A stretch of DNA of 64,000 nucleotides, taken from Malacoraja senta (lineage: Eukaryota). The translations under genes and the position numbers were made by a program. Shown one piece after another: positions 43,346-64,000 of the stretch. Each line of letters starts with the position of its first letter. Within the stretch, counting starts at the first letter, position 1. The stretch lies in the NCBI GenBank assembly GCA_038087875.1, contig CM075987.1, positions 19,470,001-19,534,000 on the forward strand. The letters are read 5' to 3'. A model generated the notes under the pieces. That model searched no databases. It worked only from the letters and a program-made list of their open reading frames with translations, and had not been told where the DNA came from.

Positions 43346-44606
43346 CAATCATAGTCTGAGCGATAGTGTGAAAACAGGCCCTTCGGTCCAACTTGCCCAC
43401 AGCAGCCAACAATGTCCCAGCTACACTAGTCCCACTTGCCTGCGCTTGGCCCATATCCCTCCAAACCTGTCCCATCCATGAACCTGTCTAATTATTTCTT
43501 AAACCGCTACCGTCGCCCAGCCGCACGCTGGAGACCGGGGTAAGCGCCAGTGGTGCTTTTATCACCACCACCGATGCCGTCCCCCCTTGCAAGTTTTCGG
43601 GAAACGCCTCGGCCGATCGTCAGTACAGGCTATCGCGATCGGCCAAAACAACCGCCTCCACATGCGCGACCGCCACTCTGGACTTTGTTTCCTGGTGGAC
43701 TCCGGGGCCATCGTGAGCATCCTCCCCCCAACTGGGCTGGACACCCGTGCTGGTAAGCGTGGCCCTGCCCTGACTGCCGTCAACCGCAGTACTATCCGCA
43801 CCTACGGCACGCGGCCCCTACCCATAACCTTCGACTCCCGTCCGTACGTATGTACCTTTACCGTCGTGGACGTACGAGGCGGGCGCCTCATTCTTACGTG
43901 ACCCTGCGACCCACGGCAACACCCTGCCCGCAGCTGAACGCGGTGGCTGAAGTTGAGGGCCCGTATGCCACCCTGCTCGCGGAGTTCCCAGAGCTCCTCA
44001 CCCCTCGTTCCCGCGTTGCGGCCCCCAAGCACGGGGTGCTGCACCCACCACAGGACCGCCATTGCATGCTCGGGCGTGCCGGCTCCCACCCTACAAGCTG
44101 TGCATCGCCAGGGAAGAATTCCAGCTGATGGAGGACATGGGGATCGTGCGGCGCTCGGACAGCCCGTGGGCATCCCCATTACATATGGTCCTTAAATCAT
44201 CTGGGGGGTGGAGACCATGTGGGGATTATAAGCGCCTGAACGCCGTTACGACCGCGGACCGCTACCCGGTCCCACATATACAGGACAGTTCGGCCCATCT
44301 GGAGGGCACTACCTTTTTTTTTTTAAGGTGGACCTGGTCCGCGGTTATCACCAGATCCCTGTTCGCCCGGACGATGTGACCAAGACAGCCACCATCACCC
44401 CGTTTGGGCTTTTTGAGTGGCTCTGTATGCCTTTTGGTTTGAAAAACGCCGCGCAGGCGCTCCAGCATCTAATGGACATGGTCGATCGGGGATTGAACTT
44501 TATTTACATCTACGTAGATGACATCCTGGTTGCGATCCGCTCCCAACAGGAACACCTCACACACATGCGGACGCTGTTCCAGCGGCTTCAAGACCATGGA
44601 CTTGTC

Positions 44607-45649
44607 GTAGGTATGTTACAATATTTACCTTCAGCAGCGCTGCAATTGTGCCACTGGCCGTGTGCGCGATTTTGGCGCCTTTGAGGGGGGGGGGGGTTAA
44701 AACGCGGGTTTCTCCTACCTTGTCCTGAATTATATTTCGTTGGAGTGCCAGCGTTTGCTGAAGAATCGTTCCGAGGGGCGTTTTGTGTATTTTTTATTTT
44801 TATTCGATCGACAAGTTCAGCGCTGGAGTTATTTTAAAATCAGCTTCGAAAGCCGTCAACGCCGACAACGGGGACGGATTTCATGCATGGGACAGGTAAA
44901 CGAAAGCAGTTTATTTTATGTATAAAAGTGCTTCTTAAGAGGCCTTTAATTCACATTTTTAAATGCGAAATGGTGATTCTTTTTCCCGAACTAACGGCAG
45001 TAATTTTCATGCCGATATGGGGTTAAATTCACCGCAAATCAACGTTCCAAATGATCGCGTTCCAGAAAAACCTACTCGGAAGATGATTTAAATGCCCATT
45101 AATTTACAGGTAATAAACATTAAATTCCTTCCATTTGGCCTATAAATCCATGACAATGAGATTTAAAAATTATGTTATATTGTGAATTCTTGTGTGAATG
45201 TTATTTGGACACTTAGGCTATTTAAAAATGTTAATCTATTCTTAAGAGATTGATAGATGTTTAGATCTAGTAATTGAATTTTGTAATTAGCTACAATTAG
45301 GTAACTAACTAATTATATGCTTTCATTTCATTTCATCTAAGTAAGATTGTTTCATATTTGTTTCAGAATGCTTCAATCTATAATAACTGAAAATTTATTT
45401 CAGTTCTTTTAATTTTTAAGAAAGTTATGGGATTTTGACTGCCCTCGATCACAGCTTTTGTGTTAAGTCAATGGAAAAGCAATAGGGAACAAGATGCTAA
45501 TTTCCGAGTATGAAAATGGCCATAACGTTTTTAATACTGAAGATATGAAAGTGAATTAGGTGTCAAATTAAACTTCTCTTTATGCTTTATCTGATGGGAT
45601 AAATTACAGACTTGATTTTTTAAATCTCAAAATTTTGTAACATTGCTAC
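44607..45649. mobile_element. AT-rich non-autonomous TIR transposon nested in the Gypsy RT
   Basis: TIRs GTAGGTATGTTACAATATTT / GTAGCAATGTTACAAAATTT; removing it restores RT ...HGLVVNLAKYQFG. Confidence 0.9.
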
Positions 45650-47651
45650 GTCGTCAATCTCGCAAAATACCAGTTTGGCCTCCGCACTATTTCGTTCCAG
45701 GGGCACAACGTCACCTCGCAGGGCGCCACCCCATTGCCCTCTAAGGTGGAGGCCATCCGGCAGTTCCGCAGGCCTCTCACTGTGAAAGGGCTACAGGAGT
45801 TTGTCGGTATGGTCAACTTCTACCACCGTTTCGTGACGGCGGCGGCCAGAATCATGCGCCCCCTCTTCCAGTGCCTCGCTGGTAAGCCACGGGAACTCGT
45901 GTGGTTCACCGAGGCGGAGGCCCCGTTCGAGGGTGTGAAAGCGACGTTAGGTGGAGTCACCATGCTGGTTCACTTGTGGGCCACGGCCTCAACGGCTCTC
46001 ACGGTGGATGCCTCCGATTCGGCCGTGGGCGGGGTGTTGGAACAGCTCATTGACGGCCGCTGGCAGCCGCTAGCCTTTTTCAGCCGTCAGCTGAGGCCCC
46101 TACTTGCTGGAGGGCAGGCCGTTCACGGCCTTTGCCGACCACAAGCCCTTGGCGTTCGCCTTGGCCAAGGTGTCCGACCCATGGTCCGCTTGGCAGCAAC
46201 AACACCTGGCATTCGTCTCGGAGTTTACGATGGACGTACAGCACGTGGCTGGGAAGTGCAACACGGTCGCCGACGCCCTGTCCCGCCCGGCCCTCCCTGC
46301 TGTGGTGGCTGTGGACCACGGTGTGGATTACGGGGAGTTTGCTGCAGCACACAGAGCGGACGACGGGATGGCGGACTACAGGACGGCCGCTTCAGGGTTG
46401 CGGTTGGCCGACGTTCCATTCGGTCCCAGGGGAGCGTTGGTGCTGTGCGACGTATCCATCCATGGCCTGGCCCACTCTTCAATCCGGGCAACTTCTGCGC
46501 TGGCGGCAGACAAATTCATCTGACAGGGCCTCCGCAAACAGGGCACGCGGCTTGGCCTAGATCCTGCGTCCCCTGCCAGACATCCAAGGTGCAACGCCAT
46601 GTGCGGGCCCCGGTGCAACACTTTGTGGTTCCCTCGAGCCGCTTCCTTCACATCCATGTGGATTTAGTGGGCCTGTTGCCGCCGTCCCTCGGCGCCACGC
46701 ATTTCCTCACGGTTGTGGATCGGTTCACGAGGTGGCCTGAGGCTATTCCGCTGTCGGACACCTCCGCCGCGTTTTGTTCCCGGGCTCTCGCGGCTATTTG
46801 GATAGCTAGGTTTGGGGTTCCGGCAGACATTTCCACCGACCGGGGGCTCAGTTCATGTCCTCGTTGTCGGCTTCGCTGGCGAAGTTATACGGGGCGCAGT
46901 TGCACCACACCACCGCCTATCACCCCCAGGCAAATGGGCTCGTGGCGCAGTTCCACCGCCACTTGAAAGCAGCACTGAAGGCACGGCTCACGGGCCCGGA
47001 CTGGGTCGACCGGTTGCCTTGGGTGCTCTTAGGCATCCGCACGGCTCCCAAAGCAGACTTGGATGCATCGTCCGCCGAGTTGGTCTACGGCTCGGTTTTG
47101 CGGGTGCCCGGGGATTTCCTCCCTGCGGTTCGAGGGCAACTGGAAGACACCCCGGCGGTGTTGGCGATTCTCCGGCAGCAAGTGGGCGGCCTGGCTCCTG
47201 TGCCTACCTCGCAGCATGGGACAGCCCCGGTCCACGTGCCGCCGGAACTTAAAAACTGCTTATTTGTTTTTGTCCGCAGGGATTCGCATCGGTCCCCACT
47301 GCAGCGTGTTTACGAAGGTTCGTTCCGGGTGTTGCGTCGCGACTTTCCGGTTGGACGTTGGGGGCCGGGAGATCGTCTCCGTCGCTCGGCTTAAACCGGC
47401 TCACCTGGATGTCGACAGCCCGGTGGTGGTGGCGCAGCCTCAGCCTAGGGGCCGTACGCTGGCCGATCCAGCGGCACCTGTTGTGCCTGTTCTCCCCGCA
47501 CCTCTTGCTTCTGTTCCTCCCACACCGTCAAGGTCCCCTGGCTTTGTTCCGCCAGCCCCACCTGTATCGCCTGTTGTTACAACGTGGGCCGGTCGTCGGG
47601 TCCGCCCTCCTGCTCAGTTCAATACCTCGGGTTCAGGAGGGGGTGGGGTCC

Positions 47652-48516: not shown

Positions 48517-49466
48517 TAAATTTATAATGTTCCACCACCCCAGCACCAGTCATTTTAGATCCAAATTGCTTTAGAAATGCAATTCACAAAAAAATTCCAA
48601 TTGAAAAAAATCTGAGAAAATAACATGTATTTTATTATTTATTATTATTTTTTAAACAAAACCTCTTTACAGTGGAAAAAATGTAGTTAAAAATATCAGA
48701 CTTTTCATGTTTTACCAAGTAACATGTATTTATTTTAATCATGAGCCTGTCACATAACTGGACACTATAACAAAGTAATAAGATTATTCTGGTATCTGTA
48801 TGAAATATATTGTCTAGTAAACGTAATTGCTAAAACAGACACTATTTGCCTTTTTAGGAAAATGTATCTATCTTAACTGGCCTTAGTTAAAAAAAAAAAA
48901 CACTTTACAAGATTTGACCTGTAAAAATTTGGACACAAAAATATCAGTAAAGGCAAAACAAGAAAATTGTTGGAAATTGTACGAAGGAGAAATTGAGTAC
49001 CTTGTGCATGAATGGATCGTTAGTGCATTGCAACATAAATTAGTTTCTTCTCCTTGTCATTTGTTTAAGTGGGACGGTGGGATTAAACTTGAACATAATA
49101 CATTGCTGATTTCTTTGCAGGGTTCCTTCGTCAAGAGCATTTACTCAATTTTAAAGTTAACACAAAAAGTGTATTTTTCAAAGAAGTGCAGTGGCTCAAT
49201 CTATGCAATCTATCAAGCTATGCAATCATTTTCAACTAATTACTTCCCTACTGTATGTATGTAAACATGTGTGAAATTTTCAATCTTTAAATAGCAGCTT
49301 AAAATCACAGGAACAAACTGGCAAATTGAGATAGATTCAAATAGCGCGATCCCCAGGTAAATCCATCAACTGCAGCAATCAATGACCCCATTAATTTTAT
49401 TTTTTTAATTAAAAAAGTGTCCAGTGTCGAAAAGCTAAATATATTCAATTAAAAAACACACACATT

Positions 49467-49711
49467 CTACAAGTAAAAATCCACCAGGGTGGCTATGGTT
49501 TTGCAGCCTTTATTTGAATAGAACTTTTCATTTTCTGGGAAGTATGTCATTTTATCAGCGACAGCAGTAATAATTTTCTCATCCGCCTGATAACCCCTGG
49601 CTACCAGTTCTTCCTTGACACACAACTTGACATGTTTATATTCCAGAGGAAGGAATGGGACAAAGTAGTCAATCACGTTACAATCAATGAGGCTGGTGTG
49701 CCAGAATCCAC
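49467..49711 (-). CDS. Torsin exon 5 (GFWHTSLID...[14 protein letters not shown]), sensor-2
   Basis: AG acceptor, TAG stop at 49467-49469. Confidence 0.95.
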
Positions 49712-51071
49712 CTATCCAATTAAACAAAAATACATTAGTTTACAAAGATCACATCAGGCAAAGCGTCAAAATCATACAGCAATTCATATCTGAGCTCCGG
49801 TTATGTACCATTTCAATTTACATGGTTTTAAAATTCTTCATTGCCCTAAACACATCACAATCTAAGTAATCTTGACCAAACCATAAATCCGTCAGGATCT
49901 CTATAGATCACCAGCTCTGGTCTTGCATAATCATTCCACCACTTGTTCAGCTATCAGCATCCTCCAGTTCCTTCCCTTAACATCTGCCTTTAAGATGCTT
50001 CATTGACCAATCATTTGGTCACCTGTGCGATTACCATTATGTGACTCAGTTTCAAACTTTTATTGGATAACAATTTTTATAGAAGTGAAGCCTTTCCAAT
50101 AATTTACAAGCTTCAAGCTCCTGCTGCACTGAATTAGCCTTCAACCAAACATTGTGGAAACTTAGCAATAAATGTCTGTGCTCCTGAGACTACAAGAAGA
50201 AAATGCAATCCGCCAGTGCAGCAACCTTTGATGGAAAACAAATAAAACTGTAGATGCTGAAATCTGAAACAAAAGCAGAGATGCTAGAAGAACTCAAGCA
50301 TTATCTGTGCAAAGATAAACCAGTCAACATTTCCAGTCAGTGATCCTTCCTCAGAACAGAACTTTCAGCACTTTGATTACCCTCAAGTAGTCAATACTGG
50401 AAAGCACATAAATGCAAACAGCAAGCATGTAAGAATAGAATTAGATGCATGCAGCTCCCAACATGAGCCTGTAAAACCTGTATAAGGAATGCAATAGATG
50501 TGCACTGGTAACTAGAATACTCATGGAAGTGGAAAACGATATGAACAGATATGAACAAAGACACAATGTCCAAAAACGTCTAGCATAGCCTTCATAAAAT
50601 TGACAAGGATGTTTAGTTTAGTTTTAAGATACAGCATGGAAACAATCCTTTCGGCCCACCAAGTCCACGCCGACCAACGCTCACCCATACACCAGTTCTA
50701 TCCCACACACTAGGGACAATTTACAGAAGCCAATTAACCTACAAACCTGCACCTCTTTGGAATGGGGGAGGAAACCCACACCGTCAAAGGGAGGATGTAC
50801 AAACTCCATACAGACAGCACCGTAGTCAGGATCAAACCCAGGTCTCTGACACAGTACGGCATCAATTTTACTGCTGCGCCACTGTGCCGCCACAATGGTT
50901 GTACAGATTTCCATTGGCGAGCATATTTTGTTCCAGTGTTCTTCATTGCACATTCCTCATTTTAAGCAAAAAAGTATATATTAATCAAATTGTACAAAGA
51001 AGATTCCAATAATTCCAAGTTGAACCAGTGCAGCTCATTTCAAACTGCCAAAATTTAGCATACATACTTAC

Positions 51072-51199
51072 TGTTTTTGCTATTGAAGACTTCGATAGAC
51101 AGTTTACTGTCAAGATCTTTCAATTGAATTTCCTCCCTTTTGCTTCCTCTGCGCCAAAAGTCCAGTGCAATCTCATTAATACCCTCAGCACCGGCATTG
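51072..51199 (-). CDS. Torsin exon 4 (SNAGAEGINEIALDFWRRG...VFNSKN), sensor-1
   Basis: AG/GT bounded, 128 nt. Confidence 0.95.
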
Positions 51200-52399
51200 C
51201 TGTTCACAACAAACAATAGTGATTTATAACAAAGAACCAAACACTAGCTGGCATAGGCTTAAGGTGAGATGGGAGAGATTCATGGGGCAAATTTTTCACT
51301 TGGGAGTCTTGTCTGTGTCTGAAATGAGCTGCCACAGGAAGCTGTAAAAGTGTAAACAATGATGCCTTTTAAAAGACATTTGGACATCTATATGGATAGG
51401 AAGGTTTTTGAGGGCTACAGGCCAAATGCAGGCCAACAGGACCAGGCCTGTATACCAACTTTGGTCAACATAGACATGGTGAACCAAAAGGCCAGTTTCA
51501 TGCCGTACAGCTCTATGACGTCACAAAGGGTATCCTCTGGAGCGTGTAGGCTTTAATACACCTCAACTCAACAAAACATAGCTACCCCATCCTTCTCAAG
51601 CATTTCTCCATCATGAGGCTCCAGAGAATTTATCATTAAATCTCTGATGACATCTCACTGTAGTACTGATGAAATGATGGAACAGTTAGAGATGTCTTCT
51701 TTAAAATAAAATGTTAAATATGCCCTCCAAGCTGATTGTCAAATATTTTATTGTGTTATTTTGCAGAAGACCAGGGAAGCTCCCTCCCATGTCCTGACCA
51801 ATCAAATCCCACACTCAATTTCAGGCACAGGAATTATCTGACTAATTATCAAATGTGTTTGTGGGAGCTGTTGTGCTCAGATCAGCTGCCCTGCTTCCTA
51901 TGGGCAGCACAGTGGCATAGATATGAGAGCTCCTGCTTCAGCACCAGTTGCCCAAGTTCAAATTTGATTGGGTGCTGACTGTGTGGAGCTTACATCCTTT
52001 CCTGTGACAACGAGTTTCTCACTGGGGTCTCAAATTTTCTCTCACATCCCAAAAATGTGCCACATGGTTGGTTAATTAGCCTTGCGTGGGGTTGGGTGGT
52101 AGAACCAGGAGGGAATTAATGAGAGTGTAGGTGAATAGGGAAAATTAGTGGGGGAAGGGGGGGAATGGGACTGTTCTGACCACCGTTTGCCTGTTGTTCT
52201 ACAATGACTGATCATGCATTACATTTATTCCCCCCATTATAATTCCAATAGCATTTACAATATATGTCAACAAAGCCTTCAGTAAATGTGCAATAAAATA
52301 ATGTACCCAATTACATTTCTATTTCAATTTCAGTATTTTTATTCCTTAAATTTGATGATAGACTTTGTTCATGTGATTCACTATATATATATATATTAC

Positions 52400-52578
52400 C
52401 TCAGAAAAATGAAAATCGCCTTCCGGTACACCACTCCATCAATGTTATTATGGTACTCCAAATAAGGCTTAATGGCATCAAAAAATAGGCCTGCTTGCAT
52501 CCAGTTCACTGCATCAAAAATGAACATGGACCTGTCACAAGTGGACACATTACCACGGATCCATTTCTGCAGCTGCTC
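52400..52578 (-). CDS. Torsin exon 3 ([59 protein letters not shown]), Walker B
   Basis: AG/GT bounded, 179 nt, translated by hand (not in the ORF track). Confidence 0.95.
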
Positions 52579-52984
52579 CTAAGGATAGACATTTATTTTG
52601 TATGAAATATATTCACAGAAGCAACAACTCTTCACCCCACCACCACAAATCCCCGAACACACCTATTCTCAACACAAACACTGTTTCATACAGCATCACT
52701 GAGATGATTATATATTATCCCCAAGTCAGGGTTGATTGATATTACAGGACTTTGCCTCATTGTGGCAGGAACAAAAGTCACTACAAATAATTGGTTGGCT
52801 GCTGAAGACAAGTAAACTTGACACTTGATATGCACGTATTGTTATGTAGCTCTCTGGTGAAGCAAGAAATTTAAGTACAGAAGAGGGTTAGTTTGGTCGA
52901 TTCTGCCTGTTTCACCCCATAAGATAAAAAAATATATTATCTCCACTTGAATCACTGACTCCCACATATAGAATGTCTCAAATA

Positions 52985-54585
52985 CAGTGGTTTGCAAAAG
53001 TATTCATACCCCTTGAACTTTTCCACATTTTGTCACGTTACAACCACAAACGTAAATGTATTTTATTGGGATTTTATGTGATAGACCAACACAAAGTGGT
53101 GCATAATTGTGAAGTGGAAGGAAAATGATACATGGTTTTCAAATTTTTTTACAAATAAAAAACTGAAAAGTGTCAGGTGCAAAAGTATTCAGCCCCCCTG
53201 AGTCAATACTTTGTAGAACCACCTTTCGCTGCAATTACAGCTGCAAGCCTTTTGGGGTATGTCTCTACCAGCTTTGCACATCTAGAGACTGACATTTTTG
53301 CCCATTCTTCATTGCAAAATAGCTCAAGCTCAGTCAGATTGGATGGAGAGCGTCTGTGAACAGCAATTTTCAAGTCTTGCCAGAGATTCTCAATTGGATT
53401 TAGGTCTGGACTTTGACTGGGCCATTCTAACACATGAATATGCTTTGATCTAAACCATTCCATTGTAGCTCTGGCTGTATGTTTAGGGTCGTTGTCCTGC
53501 TGGAAGGTGAACCTCCACCCCAGTCTCGTCTTTTGCAGACTCTAACAGGTTTTCTACCAAGATTGACCTGTATTTGGCTACATCCATCTTCCCATCAACT
53601 CTGACCAGCTTCCCTGTCCCTGCTGAAGAAAAGCATCCCCACAGCATGATGCTGCCACCACCATGTTTCACAGTGGGGATGGTGTGTTCAGGGTGATGTG
53701 CAGTGTTAGGTTTCCGCCACACATAGCGTTTTGCATTTAGGCCAAAAACTTCAATTTTGATCTCATCTGACCAGAGCACCTTCCTCCACATGTTTGCTGT
53801 GTCCCCCACATGGCTTGTGGCAAACTGCAAACGGGACTTCTTCTGGCTTTTTTTCAACAATGGCTTTCTTCTTGCCACTCTTCCATAAAGGCCCGATTTG
53901 TGGAGTGCACGACTAATAGTTGTCCTGTGGACAGATTCTCCCCCCTGAGTTGTGGATCTCTGCAGCTCCTCCAGAGTTGGCTGCTTCTCTGATCAATGCT
54001 CTCCTTGCCCGGCGTTTCAGTTTAGGTGGACGGCCATGTCTTGGTAGGTTTGCAGTTGTCCCATACTCTTTCCATTTTCGGATGATGGATTGAACAGTGC
54101 TCCGTGAGATGTTCAAAGCTTGGGATATTTTTGTATAACCTAACCCTGCTTTAAACCTCTCCACAACTTTATCCCTGACCTGTCTGGTGTGTTCCTTGGG
54201 CTTCATGATGCTGTGTGTTCACTAATGTTCTCTAACAAACCTCTGAGGCCTTCACAGAACAGCTGTATTTATACTGAGATTAGATTACACACAAGTGGAC
54301 TCTATTTACTAATTAGGTGACTTCTGAAGGCAATTAGTTGCACTGGATTTTATTTAGGAGTATCAGAGTAAAGGAGGCTGAATACTTTTGCACGCGATAC
54401 TTTTCAGTTTTTTATTTGTAAAAAAATGTGAAAACCATGTATAATTTTCCTTCCACTTCACAATTATGCGCCACTTTGTGTTGGTCTATCACATAAAATC
54501 CCAATAAAATACATTTACGTTTGTGGTTGTAACGTGACAAAATGTGGAAAAGTTCAAGGGGTATGAATACTTTTGCAAGCCACTG
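52985..54585 (-). mobile_element. Near full-length Tc1 (Passport/Eagle-Glan-like), 1601 bp, frameshifted transposase
   Basis: TA|CAGTGG...CCACTG|TA; about 200-bp ITRs; transposase 54206 to 53203 in three frames (GRPPK, WSDE, DLNPIE). Confidence 0.95.
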
Positions 54586-60017: not shown

Positions 60018-60283
60018 CTTATAGTGGCTGAGATATTCAGGGTGAGGGAAGTGCAAAGTGGAGATAAACTGATGAACATATGCACTCTGCATTCCATTTG
60101 TGTAAATGTTCTCAGCTATTATTTTACTAACTAGGGTTTTGCCTGTCCCGGTCCAGCCATGCAGAGACAAAGCCAGAGGTTTTTTAGGGTTTGGATTTGT
60201 GAAGAAACCATTGACAGCCTTCAAAACAACTTGCTTGGCAATATGTTGTCCAAATAGTTTGTTATCCAAGTCCATCTTCAAAC
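60018..60283 (-). CDS. Torsin exon 2 ([13 protein letters not shown]...[10 protein letters not shown]...SHYK), Walker A
   Basis: AG/GT bounded, 266 nt. Confidence 0.96.
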
Positions 60284-61717: not shown

Positions 61718-63250
61718 AGTCAAGTCAAGTGAGTTTATTGTCATGCGTCCCTGATAGGACAATGAAATTCTTGCTTTGCTTCAGCACAACAGAACATAGT
61801 AGGCATTGACTAAAAGGCATTCTATAAATATATACACACATGAATCAATATACTGATAAATTGCAAATAACAGTATTGGCTAATAAAGTTCAGTGTTATG
61901 TCCGAGCCAGGTTTAATAGCCTGATGGCTGTGGGGAAGTAGCTGTTCCTGAACCTGGTCGTTGCAGTCTTCAGGCTCCTGTACCTTCTACCTGAAGGTAG
62001 TATGGAGATGAGTGTGTGGCCAGGATGGTGTGGGTCCTTGATGATACTGCCAGCCTTTTTGAGGCAGCGACTGTGATAGATCCCCTCGATGGAAGGGAGG
62101 TCAGAGCCGATGATGGACTGGGCAGTGTTTACTACTTTTTGTAGTCTTTTCCTCTCCAGGGCGCTCAAGTTGCCGAACCAAGCCACGATGCAACCAGTCA
62201 GCATGCTCTCTACTGTGCACCTGTAGGTTAGAGAGAGTCCTCCTTGACAAACCGACTCTCCGTAATCTACTCAGGAAGTAGATGCGCTGATGTGCTTTCT
62301 TAATAATGGCATCAGTGTTCTCGGACCAGGAAAGATCTTCAGAGATGTGCACGCCCAGGAATTTGAAGCTCTTGACCCTTTCAACCATCGACCCGTTGAT
62401 ATAAACGGGACTGTGGGTCCCCATCCTACTCCTTCCAAAGTCCACAATCAGTTCCTTGGTTTTGCTGGTGTTGAGGGCCAGGTTATTGTGCTGGCACCAT
62501 ATGGACAGTTGCTCGATCTCTCTTCTATACTCTGACACATCCCCATCAGTGATACGTCCCACAACAGTGGTGTCGTCAGCGAACTTGATGATGGAGTTCG
62601 CACTATGTCCGGCTACGCAGTCATGAGTATAGAGTGAGTACAGCAGGGGGCTGAGCACGCAGCCTTGAGGTGCTCCCGTGCTGATTGTTATCGAGTCTGA
62701 CACATTTCCACCAATACGAACAGACTGTGGTCTGAGAGTGAGGAAGTCGAGGATCCAATTGCAGAGGGATGCGCAGAGACCCAGTTCTGCGAGTTTGGTA
62801 ACCAGCTTGGAGGGGATGATTGTGTTAAATGCCGAGCTGTAATCGATGAATAACAGCCTGACATATGAGTTTTTGTTGTCCAAGTGGTCCAGAGCGGAGT
62901 GGAGGGCCAGCGAGATCGCATCCACCGTTGATCTGTTGTGGTGGTAAGCGAACTGCAGTGGGTCCAGGTTTTTGTCGAGGTAGGAGTTGATCTGCGTCAT
63001 GATCAACCTCTCAAAGCACTTCATCACCACAGGCGTTAGTGCCACAGGTCGATAGTCATTGAGGCACGTCACCTTACTCTTCTTGGGCACTGGTATAATT
63101 GATGCCCTTTTGAAGCAGGTGGGAACCTCAGACCTCAGAAGTGAGAGGTTGAAAATGTCCGTAAAAACTCCAGCCAGTTGGTCCGCACAGGTTTTTAGAA
63201 CACGACCAGGTATACCATCAGGTCCAGGTGCTTTTCGAGGGTTCACCCCA
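61718..63250 (-). mobile_element. 5'-truncated Rex1/Babar-like LINE with a largely open RT
   Basis: ORF 62101..63321 ([29 protein letters not shown]); one frameshift near 62220; (CTTGA)n tail at about 61718-61731. Confidence 0.92.
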
Positions 63251-63892
63251 ATGAAGTACAATCTCATTTTAGAATTACTGATAACTAGAACCACCGTGTC
63301 CGGCAAATAAATGAGGATCACAGCCAGAACCTAGCAATTAGACAGGCGCATGGATTTGCAGGGAATAGAGGGATATGGGTTATGTGCAGGCAGAGATTAA
63401 TTTAACCCAGCATCAATGTTCAGCACCGATATTGTGGGCTGTAGGACCTGTTCTTGTGCTGTATTGTTCTATCTTCTGTGAGTGTTGGAGGTCAGGAGAC
63501 TAATAAAAGTATATGAGAGGCTTCCTGTGGTGTCCTGTTTTATCTATTTATTACATTATTATAGAAACAACACTATTTCAATGACCACTTTTCACTCTCC
63601 ATCCATCAAAAGAGACAAATAAAGTTAAGATTAAAAAATCAATTTCTTCTCCTTATTATTTCGGGCCAAATTATTACTGGCTTATTACTGGATTTATATC
63701 CAAATCTGAATTTGCATTGTAATTCCCATCAGCAAATATGTGTTGTGCATTGTTCATTGTCACAACTACCCTGGAGAGAGCAGACGTGTTGCAAGGTAGC
63801 CTGTGCAATCTGCATGTAAAAGTCCTGTGGATGCAGCACAAATAAATAGCCGGTGAACGTTAACGTGACGGTGAGATGTCACGACTATTTAC

Positions 63893-64000
63893 CTGTCAGG
63901 TTGAGTTTCACCCACTCGTCCTCACAACACTCCTGGAACTTGCAGTACACTTTGGGGAAGAGGCCGGTAAGAAAAGTGGCCACGCCATCTGCGATGCCCA
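63893..64000 (-). CDS. Torsin exon 1, partial (GIADGVATFLTGLFPKVYCKFQECCEDEWVKLNLT)
   Basis: Torsin YCxFxECC motif; donor ACAG|GTAAAT, phase 1. Confidence 0.9.

Follow-up and report, generated by a model that had tools for sequence, protein, structure and literature searches.

A tandem torsin-1 copy of the skate Malacoraja senta without the Walker B glutamate, probably a relaxed and possibly decaying duplicate

To our knowledge, no AAA+ ATPases other than torsins reside in the ER lumen and nuclear envelope. What torsins act on, and how, is still unclear, and the E171Q trap mutant is the main tool of the field. In the active site, the Walker B glutamate activates water for ATP hydrolysis. In the available excerpts of the report on TorsinA E171Q, the mutant was trapped in the ATP-bound state, stabilised the binding of LAP1/LULL1, and was essentially inactive (PMC4358337). 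Zebrafish Torsin1 E177Q relocated to the nuclear envelope, as described in the available part of that study (PMC3460957). Residue K174 was presented, in the portion of the source at hand, as one of three highly conserved lysines of the inner channel, and K174E lost membrane tubulation (PMC6646356). The accessible portion of the report on the solved complex described charge interactions between E303 and R276 of LULL1 and between D316 and R419 of LULL1, and LULL1 was still bound when only the E303 salt bridge was removed (PMC4999309). No description of a natural torsin without the Walker B glutamate was found in the literature outside subscription journals. Here, a natural torsin-1 copy of this kind was located in a skate, and it is probably, with modest confidence on our part, a duplicate under relaxed selection that is possibly decaying.

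The window, which is the whole 64,000-nucleotide stretch of DNA analysed, contained a torsin-1 gene on the minus strand, referred to below as copy A. Five exons were found by tblastn using the Amblyraja radiata torsin-1A-like protein (P0006), the closest database protein, as a query. Exon 1 was represented in the window by its 3′ part (63893–64000), located by tblastn and followed by the donor GT at 63892–63891. The ATG was at the window-equivalent position 64064, beyond the window edge, and the rest of exon 1 was taken from the same contig. Exon 1 encoded a putative signal peptide and, as judged by hydropathy, a hydrophobic segment of reduced length with an Asp residue in it (GIADGV). Exon 2 (60018–60283, 266 nt), supported by tblastn and Pfam, carried the Walker A motif GWTGTGKT at 60158–60135. 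Exon 3 (52400–52578) was composed of 179 nt, compared with 176 nt in the two neighbouring copies B and C, and contained a degenerate Walker B motif. It was preceded by AG and followed by GT, and the stop-to-stop frame around it was 52578–52396 on the minus strand. Exon 4 (51072–51199, 128 nt) kept the sensor-1 SNAG, the Ser codon of which was split by the exon 3/4 junction. Exon 5 (49467–49711) included the sensor-2 GCK at 49508–49500 and the stop codon TAG at 49469–49467.

The joined exons of copy A formed an open frame of 329 residues with no stop or frameshift, and all eight internal splice sites of the four introns were present, with AG at the acceptors and GT at the donors. A search for disabling lesions (stop, frameshift, or lost splice site) across the coding exons of copy A found none. 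Exon 2 matched the Pfam Torsin family (PF06309) at 128 bits (E = 3.1e-37), and exon 5 matched TOR1A_C (PF21376) at 87.6 bits (E = 5.7e-25), where the cut-off of either profile is 27 bits. Both the Torsin N-terminal ATPase profile and the TOR1A C-terminal small domain were above the curated cut-off, which placed copy A in the Torsin family. The earlier note on this DNA had described an intact torsin-1 gene, and the 329-residue frame, with every AG and GT site in place, agreed with that description. The frames and splice sites it gave for the exons in the window also held, with the correction that exon 1 begins outside the window.

The introns of copy A contained a repeat and remains of mobile elements. 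A reverse-transcriptase reading frame of 409 residues (62104–63330, minus strand) in intron 1 was of the LINE type (Pfam RVT_1, E = 2.3e-32) and was not part of the gene. A remnant of a Tc1/mariner-type transposase (53486–53992, minus strand) was located in intron 2 (Pfam HTH_Tnp_Tc3_2, E = 1.4e-20). Intron 4 included a very high-copy interspersed repeat at 50600–50925. The summed contig depth of this repeat was 10^5 to 10^6 in three DNA runs, compared with roughly 50 in the flanks, and its contigs had many joints and loose ends. Downstream of copy A, a GC-rich stretch at 43500–47000 on the plus strand contained fragments of an LTR-type retroelement, which belonged to its reverse transcriptase, RNase H, and integrase.

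Three complete torsin-1 genes were arranged in tandem on the minus strand of contig C11 in the 1.94 Gb genome, and copy A was the 3′-most of them. When the genome was searched with exon 3 at the DNA level, exactly three copies were returned, with 100%, 93%, and 93% identity, and no fourth. The reading frames of copies A, B, and C encoded 329, 335, and 317 residues, respectively. Copy B kept all of the catalytic motifs, and its exon 3 read FIFDEMDKMQAGLIDAIKP. It differed from the canonical torsin-1 of Amblyraja and Leucoraja at 11 of 335 positions, and its exon 3 protein was 100% identical to that of the canonical torsin-1 of Amblyraja radiata and Leucoraja. Copy C was located about 45 kb further upstream (G000:C11:19606848-19625663; loci L003, L006, L009, and L014) and retained the Walker B glutamate. 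In copy C, SQAG replaced the sensor-1 SNAG, the C-terminus was altered (RVGYY), and a 14-residue deletion took out most of the N-terminal hydrophobic segment. The proteins of copies A and B were 91% identical, with 29 differences in 328 aligned positions. Copy A had been introduced in the earlier note as the torsin-1 of this species; the gene is real, but it is one of three tandem paralogs, and the canonical copy B ends 15 kb upstream of the start of copy A.

The region of about 230 nt upstream of the ATG was 97–99% identical among copies A, B, and C, so that the proximal promoter may persist upstream of copy A. A stretch of more than 3 kb that includes exon 3 was approximately 100% identical between copies B and C (locus L008 compared with L009, about 3.2 kb), yet the two copies differed elsewhere. 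In identity profiles of 3-kb loci, copy A resembled copy B on one side of exon 2 and copy C on the other, and the introns of copy A near exon 3 differed by 3–5% from those of copies B and C. The torsin-1 array is therefore a mosaic of conversion tracts in which gene conversion is recent and active, and proteins are not a reliable guide to the orthology of single copies. Three further torsin-family loci were present in the genome. One of G000:C11:960291-969838, G000:C11:27881935-27882768, and G000:C5594:127940-128689 was multi-exon and 45–63% identical to torsin-1, and the other two were single uninterrupted matches free of stops with 26–28% identity.

The Walker B motif of copy A read FIFDA. 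The FIFD residues were encoded at 52524–52513, followed by the Ala codon GCA at 52512–52510, where torsins have glutamate (human E171), and by Val-Asn-Trp at 52509–52501. A Phe-Phe insertion region was located at 52485–52480, all on the minus strand as read by translation. Exon 3 aligned with the human TorsinA chains of 6OIF, 5J1S, and 5J1T in HMMER (E = 2.1e-19). Compared with FIFDEMDK of TorsinA, the alignment gave the changes E to A, M to V, D to N, and K to W, in addition to a one-residue insertion. The position of the Ala codon, the Walker B changes, and the one-residue insertion listed by the earlier note were all recovered in the assembly by translation and HMMER. Its statement that the sensor-1 SNAG, the conserved cysteines, and GCK are retained was likewise confirmed by translation.

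When exon 3 of copy A was compared at the DNA level with that of copies B and C, which is the same in both, five substitutions were found inside 10 nt, changing GAAATGGACAAG to GCAGTGAACTGG. The CTTATT of copies B and C was changed to CTATTTTTT, and two nonsynonymous and two synonymous changes were present besides. In 20,000 neutral simulations of the 25 private substitutions of copy A, five substitutions fell in a 12-nt span in about 0.2% of trials (P ~0.002). Since the clustering exceeds the neutral expectation, it reflects either a change of several nucleotides in one event or constraint that was released locally after the loss of the glutamate. An ectopic donor for the cluster was also considered. 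The 20-mer across the cluster had two 19/20 matches in the genome, at C2694:32952-32971 and C2993:24672-24691 (L016 and L017), which were two copies of one unrelated locus on unplaced contigs, 98.7% identical to each other. These matches are probably due to chance, and the donor was rejected; the similarity was confined to 20 nt, and by estimate about 0.2 such matches were expected by chance.

The variant exon was sought in independent data. Among the 23 public runs listed, the best share of 17 sampled exon 3 words was 0.18, and none contained half of them. The value of 0.18 was about the fraction of words common to exon 3 of copy A and to copies B and C, as calculated from the alignment. No RNA run was found for this species, and none was listed as containing exon 3 of copy A. 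Four runs (X1, X2, X21, and X5) were compared as contigs over 49400–52650; such contigs drop minority paths and show presence, not absence. Contigs of run X1 had zero differences to copy A at 49456–49590, 50401–50523, and 51251–51385, and copy-A letters at 51181–51188. Over exon 3 and intron 3, run X1 gave only B/C-type letters in a single contig, which was without 3 nt at 52482–52486, with the deletion depth equal to the full depth (51.2 of 51.2). The exon 3 pattern of X1 has three possible origins: another species, an individual with a converted copy A, or an assembly error. Run X5, which was RNA-like and from another skate, contained spliced exon 4–exon 5 contigs of a related torsin-1 copy; it represents the related copy of another organism and therefore says nothing about copy A. 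A short-protein search for the variant exon returned 23 matches, none of them above 70% identity.

These results bear on an alternative in which exon 3 of copy A is polymorphic, or private to the sequenced individual, in a conversion-prone region, or in which it is a local assembly or consensus error. The low share of exon 3 words in the public runs and the exact copy-A pieces of X1 next to a B/C-type exon 3 are in line with it, although X1 may be another species and its contigs drop minority paths. The approximate identity of copies B and C around exon 3, which indicates recent conversion of that segment, and the outcome of the short-protein search also point in this direction. A random consensus error, however, is hard to reconcile with substitutions that are accompanied by an in-frame 3-nt insertion and by introns 3–5% different from those of copies B and C, which argue for a diverged copy. 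Two derived residues of copy A also recur in a second skate protein, Rhinoraja P0129. An allelic or artefactual exon 3 is thus considered quite improbable, and copy A is treated below as a diverged, relaxed duplicate.

The remaining functional residues of copy A were compared with those of human TorsinA. Walker A of copy A, GWTGTGKT, satisfied the pattern GxxGxGK[N/S/T], and canonical torsins have GKN. The sensor-2 GCK and the Cys residue in KHVKLCVK, the partners of human C280 and C319, were both present. Walker A, sensor 1, and sensor 2 were those of a competent ATPase, and the Walker B glutamate was the motif residue that failed. Because these three motifs are intact, the product of copy A, if made, would probably still bind ATP. 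The behaviour of TorsinA E171Q and of other AAA+ proteins mutated in Walker B leads us to infer that it would be unable to hydrolyse ATP.

Further losses were located outside the Walker B glutamate. The lysine of the inner channel, equivalent to K174, was Trp in the alignment to human TorsinA. Exon 5 aligned to positions 201–279 of 6OIF (E = 3.2e-33), and in this alignment a Lys at 49553–49551 was opposite human E303 and an Asn at 49514–49512 was opposite D316. The N-terminus of copy A, MKVMVRAVLLMLLSTP, was the same as in copy B. The hydrophobic segment behind the signal peptide had 19 residues, including the Asp, in copy A compared with 26 residues in copy B, and the best 15-residue Kyte-Doolittle mean of the N-terminal segment was 1.42 compared with 1.84. 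The earlier note had stated that the E171Q trap binds LAP1/LULL1 more strongly. Such an enhanced trap is doubtful for copy A, in which both charge contacts with LULL1 are altered. Since E303, D316, and K174 are replaced by Lys, Asn, and Trp, respectively, the classical trap behaviour is not expected of copy A. Taken together, the residue losses look like a general erosion of the ATPase–activator–membrane system, and they do not resemble a simple ATP trap that binds its cofactors more strongly.

The principal alternative is that copy A is a working non-enzymatic torsin, that is, an ATP-binding but hydrolysis-dead luminal subunit that would co-assemble with the canonical copy or with the activators and tune their activity. 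The open reading frame, the intact splice sites, the in-frame indels, and the retention of the nucleotide-binding motifs besides Walker B are compatible with this. The available excerpts on the stably ATP-bound, LAP1/LULL1-binding TorsinA E171Q (PMC4358337) and on zebrafish Torsin1 E177Q at the nuclear envelope (PMC3460957) speak for such a subunit; in copy A, the two activator charge contacts and the inner-channel lysine are changed as well. The variant exon was seen in no second data set, and no RNA run was listed for exon 3. Spliced RNA contigs of a related torsin-1 transcript were nevertheless present in another skate, and related non-canonical copies have been annotated. The rate and pattern of evolution and the distribution of the glutamate loss in relatives, given below, bear on the same alternative.

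The protein of copy A evolved much faster than that of copy B. In the Tajima relative-rate test with Amblyraja as the outgroup, 25 unique changes were found in copy A compared with 3 in copy B (P = 3e-5), which represents an approximately 8-fold faster change at the protein level. With three other outgroups the A:B ratios ranged from 19:3 to 24:2, and a similar result (27:4) was obtained for copy C. The end branches in the maximum-likelihood tree were 0.069 for copy A and 0.011 for copy B. Among the 189 columns that were invariant in 10 canonical chondrichthyan torsin-1 proteins, 14 were changed in copy A.

The substitution pattern behind this acceleration was compatible with neutrality. The NG86 dN/dS values were 0.61 for A–B (dS 0.078), 0.77 for A–C, and 0.76 for B–C. 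Values below 1 are a point against the decay of copy A. The earlier note had named a dN/dS near 1 as a sign of a young pseudogene; the pairwise values of 0.61–0.77 lie near that state, and the pattern of copy A could not be distinguished from neutrality in simulation. Sites private to copy A comprised 5 synonymous and 16 nonsynonymous codons, and the neutral simulation expected 5.1–6.7 synonymous ones. The probability of at least the observed number of synonymous changes on the copy A branch was 0.60–0.83 under neutrality, a comparison of low power that involves 25 substitutions only. The fit of these branch substitutions to neutrality argues against a regulatory copy A. With 25 hits, the frame stayed free of stops in 35–46% of the neutral trials, so that an open frame alone is weak evidence of function. 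All four indels in the coding exons of copies A and C were multiples of three: 12 nt and 9 nt were shared, 30 nt belonged to copy C, and +3 nt to copy A. Indels of this kind would be unlikely if the reading frame did not matter, although there were just four events.

The glutamate loss of copy A was specific to its lineage, as the earlier note had proposed, and DEMDKM was kept in all eight other chondrichthyan torsin-1 proteins fetched. The Walker B motif was then surveyed in 212 collected torsin-1 proteins, a biased sample that came from two word-seeded searches, the second of which was seeded with the paralog of Sander. Glutamate was present in 214 of 222 Walker B units and absent in 8, all of which were extra torsin-1A/B-like paralogs. 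It was replaced by Ala in two proteins of Sander lucioperca, Gly in Sander vitreus, Val in Hemibagrus wyckioides, Gln in Pagrus major, and Asp in Semicossyphus pulcher. In skates, it was replaced by Gln in unit 2 of Amblyraja isoform X4 (P0122, FIFDQMDKMQ) and by Gly in Rhinoraja longicauda P0129 (FIFDGMDKIQ). The teleost proteins without glutamate were P0027, P0138, P0107, P0103, P0206, and P0178. No paper describing scattered glutamate loss in extra fish paralogs was found in the literature outside subscription journals.

The relatives of the Sander copy in Perca and Etheostoma keep the glutamate. As judged from these sequences, the loss is recurrent and scattered and does not define an old conserved class; a scattered pattern is the prediction of relaxed selection. 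That the glutamate was lost several times over in additional fish torsin-1 paralogs (8 of 222 units) can also be read in favour of a non-enzymatic role. Such a role is weakened by the lack of conservation of the loss in relatives. Among the non-canonical skate units, 3 of 10 were without glutamate (A, G, and Q) compared with about 1 expected at their average divergence, which counts against decay alone. The repeated loss in fishes amounts to a modest comparative point that can be tested and not to a new kind of system. Walker A with GK[ST] occurred in 23 of the 222 paired motif units. A co-variation of GK[ST] with the glutamate loss was rejected, with 22 of these units having glutamate and 1 being without it.

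Further skate copies were taken from the clusters at 90% identity around the best matches. Among them, Rhinoraja P0129 shared two derived states with copy A, Walker A GKT and EYH, which hint at an older shared lineage and would speak for a retained role of copy A. When 15 full-length proteins were placed in a tree, the skate copies all fell into one clade (100/100), and copy C grouped with Leucoraja erinacea P0127 (94/92), both having SQAG. An orthology of copy A and P0129 was not supported: the tree grouped the three Rhinoraja copies by species and left copy A in a polytomy, and conversion tracts make such gene trees unreliable. The clustering of the Rhinoraja copies by species also counts against a regulatory copy A. 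The torsin-1A-like RefSeq isoforms P0121–P0126 of Amblyraja radiata and Leucoraja erinacea (436–516 residues) were chimeras of adjacent units, in which exons 1–4 of one unit were joined to exons 2–4 or 2–5 of the next. Some of them ended in a retained intron 4 (…NSKYVC), and in the Leucoraja chimeric models Walker A of unit 1 was GGTGTGK.

The scaffold or regulator without hydrolysis proposed in the earlier note therefore finds support in the replaced Walker B glutamate and the intact gene, and less in the neutral-like substitution pattern and the canonical copy beside it; a working non-enzymatic copy A is considered unlikely, although it keeps an appreciable chance of being correct. A broader version, in which hydrolysis-dead torsin-1 paralogs are a recurrently evolved class and not products of decay, is held to be improbable. 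In that version, each tandem duplication of torsin-1 in fishes tends to leave one copy without the membrane anchor and without the Walker B glutamate, which was replaced by A, G, Q, or V in skates, percids, a catfish, and a sea bream. If it were true, such a protein would be retained as a soluble subunit locked with ATP, which would either cap or poison the oligomers of torsin or act as a buffer for the activators, and it would be a natural dominant regulator of torsin activity at the nuclear envelope.

In the preferred reading of copy A as a relaxed duplicate, copy B presumably carries the ancestral function, as it has kept all of the catalytic motifs and evolved slowly. Copy A would be redundant and under strongly relaxed selection; it has lost the Walker B glutamate, the inner-channel lysine, two charged activator contacts, and part of the membrane-anchoring hydrophobic segment. 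Its protein, if translated, would enter the ER lumen and probably bind ATP with no hydrolysis. Copy A most likely contributes little and is heading to pseudogenisation, and its frame may still be open because too few mutations have occurred so far. We infer from the motif losses and the substitution pattern that copy A is without a present function.

A natural torsin with a dead Walker B, if expressed and selected, would be an evolutionary experiment on an ATP-locked torsin in vivo. The evidence points otherwise, to a redundant tandem copy that evolves almost freely beside an intact canonical gene. The practical value is mostly in annotation. The torsin-1 loci of skates are conversion-prone arrays in which RefSeq models fuse adjacent units, and a copy whose catalytic motifs are damaged should not pass on into annotation as a functional ATPase.

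When copy A was compared with human TorsinA (TOR1A; PDB codes 5J1S, 5J1T, and 6OIF), both belonged to the same family and shared the same exon layout. Like the laboratory mutant E171Q, copy A is without the catalytic carboxylate. In copy A, however, the change is natural and is E to A, combined with M to V, D to N, K174 to W, and an extra Phe. In addition, copy A has Lys at the position of E303, Asn at the position of D316, GKT in place of GKN, and a shorter, Asp-containing N-terminal segment. TorsinA E171Q keeps the activator contacts, whereas copy A does not keep all of them.

The activators LAP1 and LULL1 (TOR1AIP1/2) are degenerate AAA+-like proteins and provide a precedent for hydrolysis-dead AAA+ folds as torsin partners. 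In the available excerpts, Walker B of LAP1 read hhhhHR (PMC4358337). LAP1 and LULL1 cannot bind nucleotide, possess an arginine finger, and are encoded by old and conserved genes. Unlike them, copy A has kept Walker A, has no added arginine finger that could be seen, and is young and fast-evolving.

Copy A was also compared with the other skate torsin-1 genes. The canonical ones are copy B, XP_032904835.1 of Amblyraja radiata (P0006), XP_055516136.1 of Leucoraja erinacea (P0128), and XP_078282495.1 of Rhinoraja longicauda (P0131). Copy A has the same five exons as copy B, and its 5′ end and the sequence just upstream are nearly the same. The canonical proteins of Amblyraja, Leucoraja, and copy B differ from one another at 9–11 of 335 residues, and that of Rhinoraja differs at 26–29 of 335, with every motif kept. 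The non-canonical ones are copy C, Leucoraja P0127, Rhinoraja P0129 and P0130, and units within P0121–P0126. Like copy A, they are extra tandem copies that evolve faster, have a shorter hydrophobic segment, and carry individual lesions in their catalytic motifs, namely SQAG in copy C and P0127, GGTGTGK in Leucoraja unit 1, and Walker B with G in P0129 and with Q in unit 2 of P0122. Copy A differs from all of them in its version of the motif, AVNW together with FF, which none of the other non-canonical copies carries.
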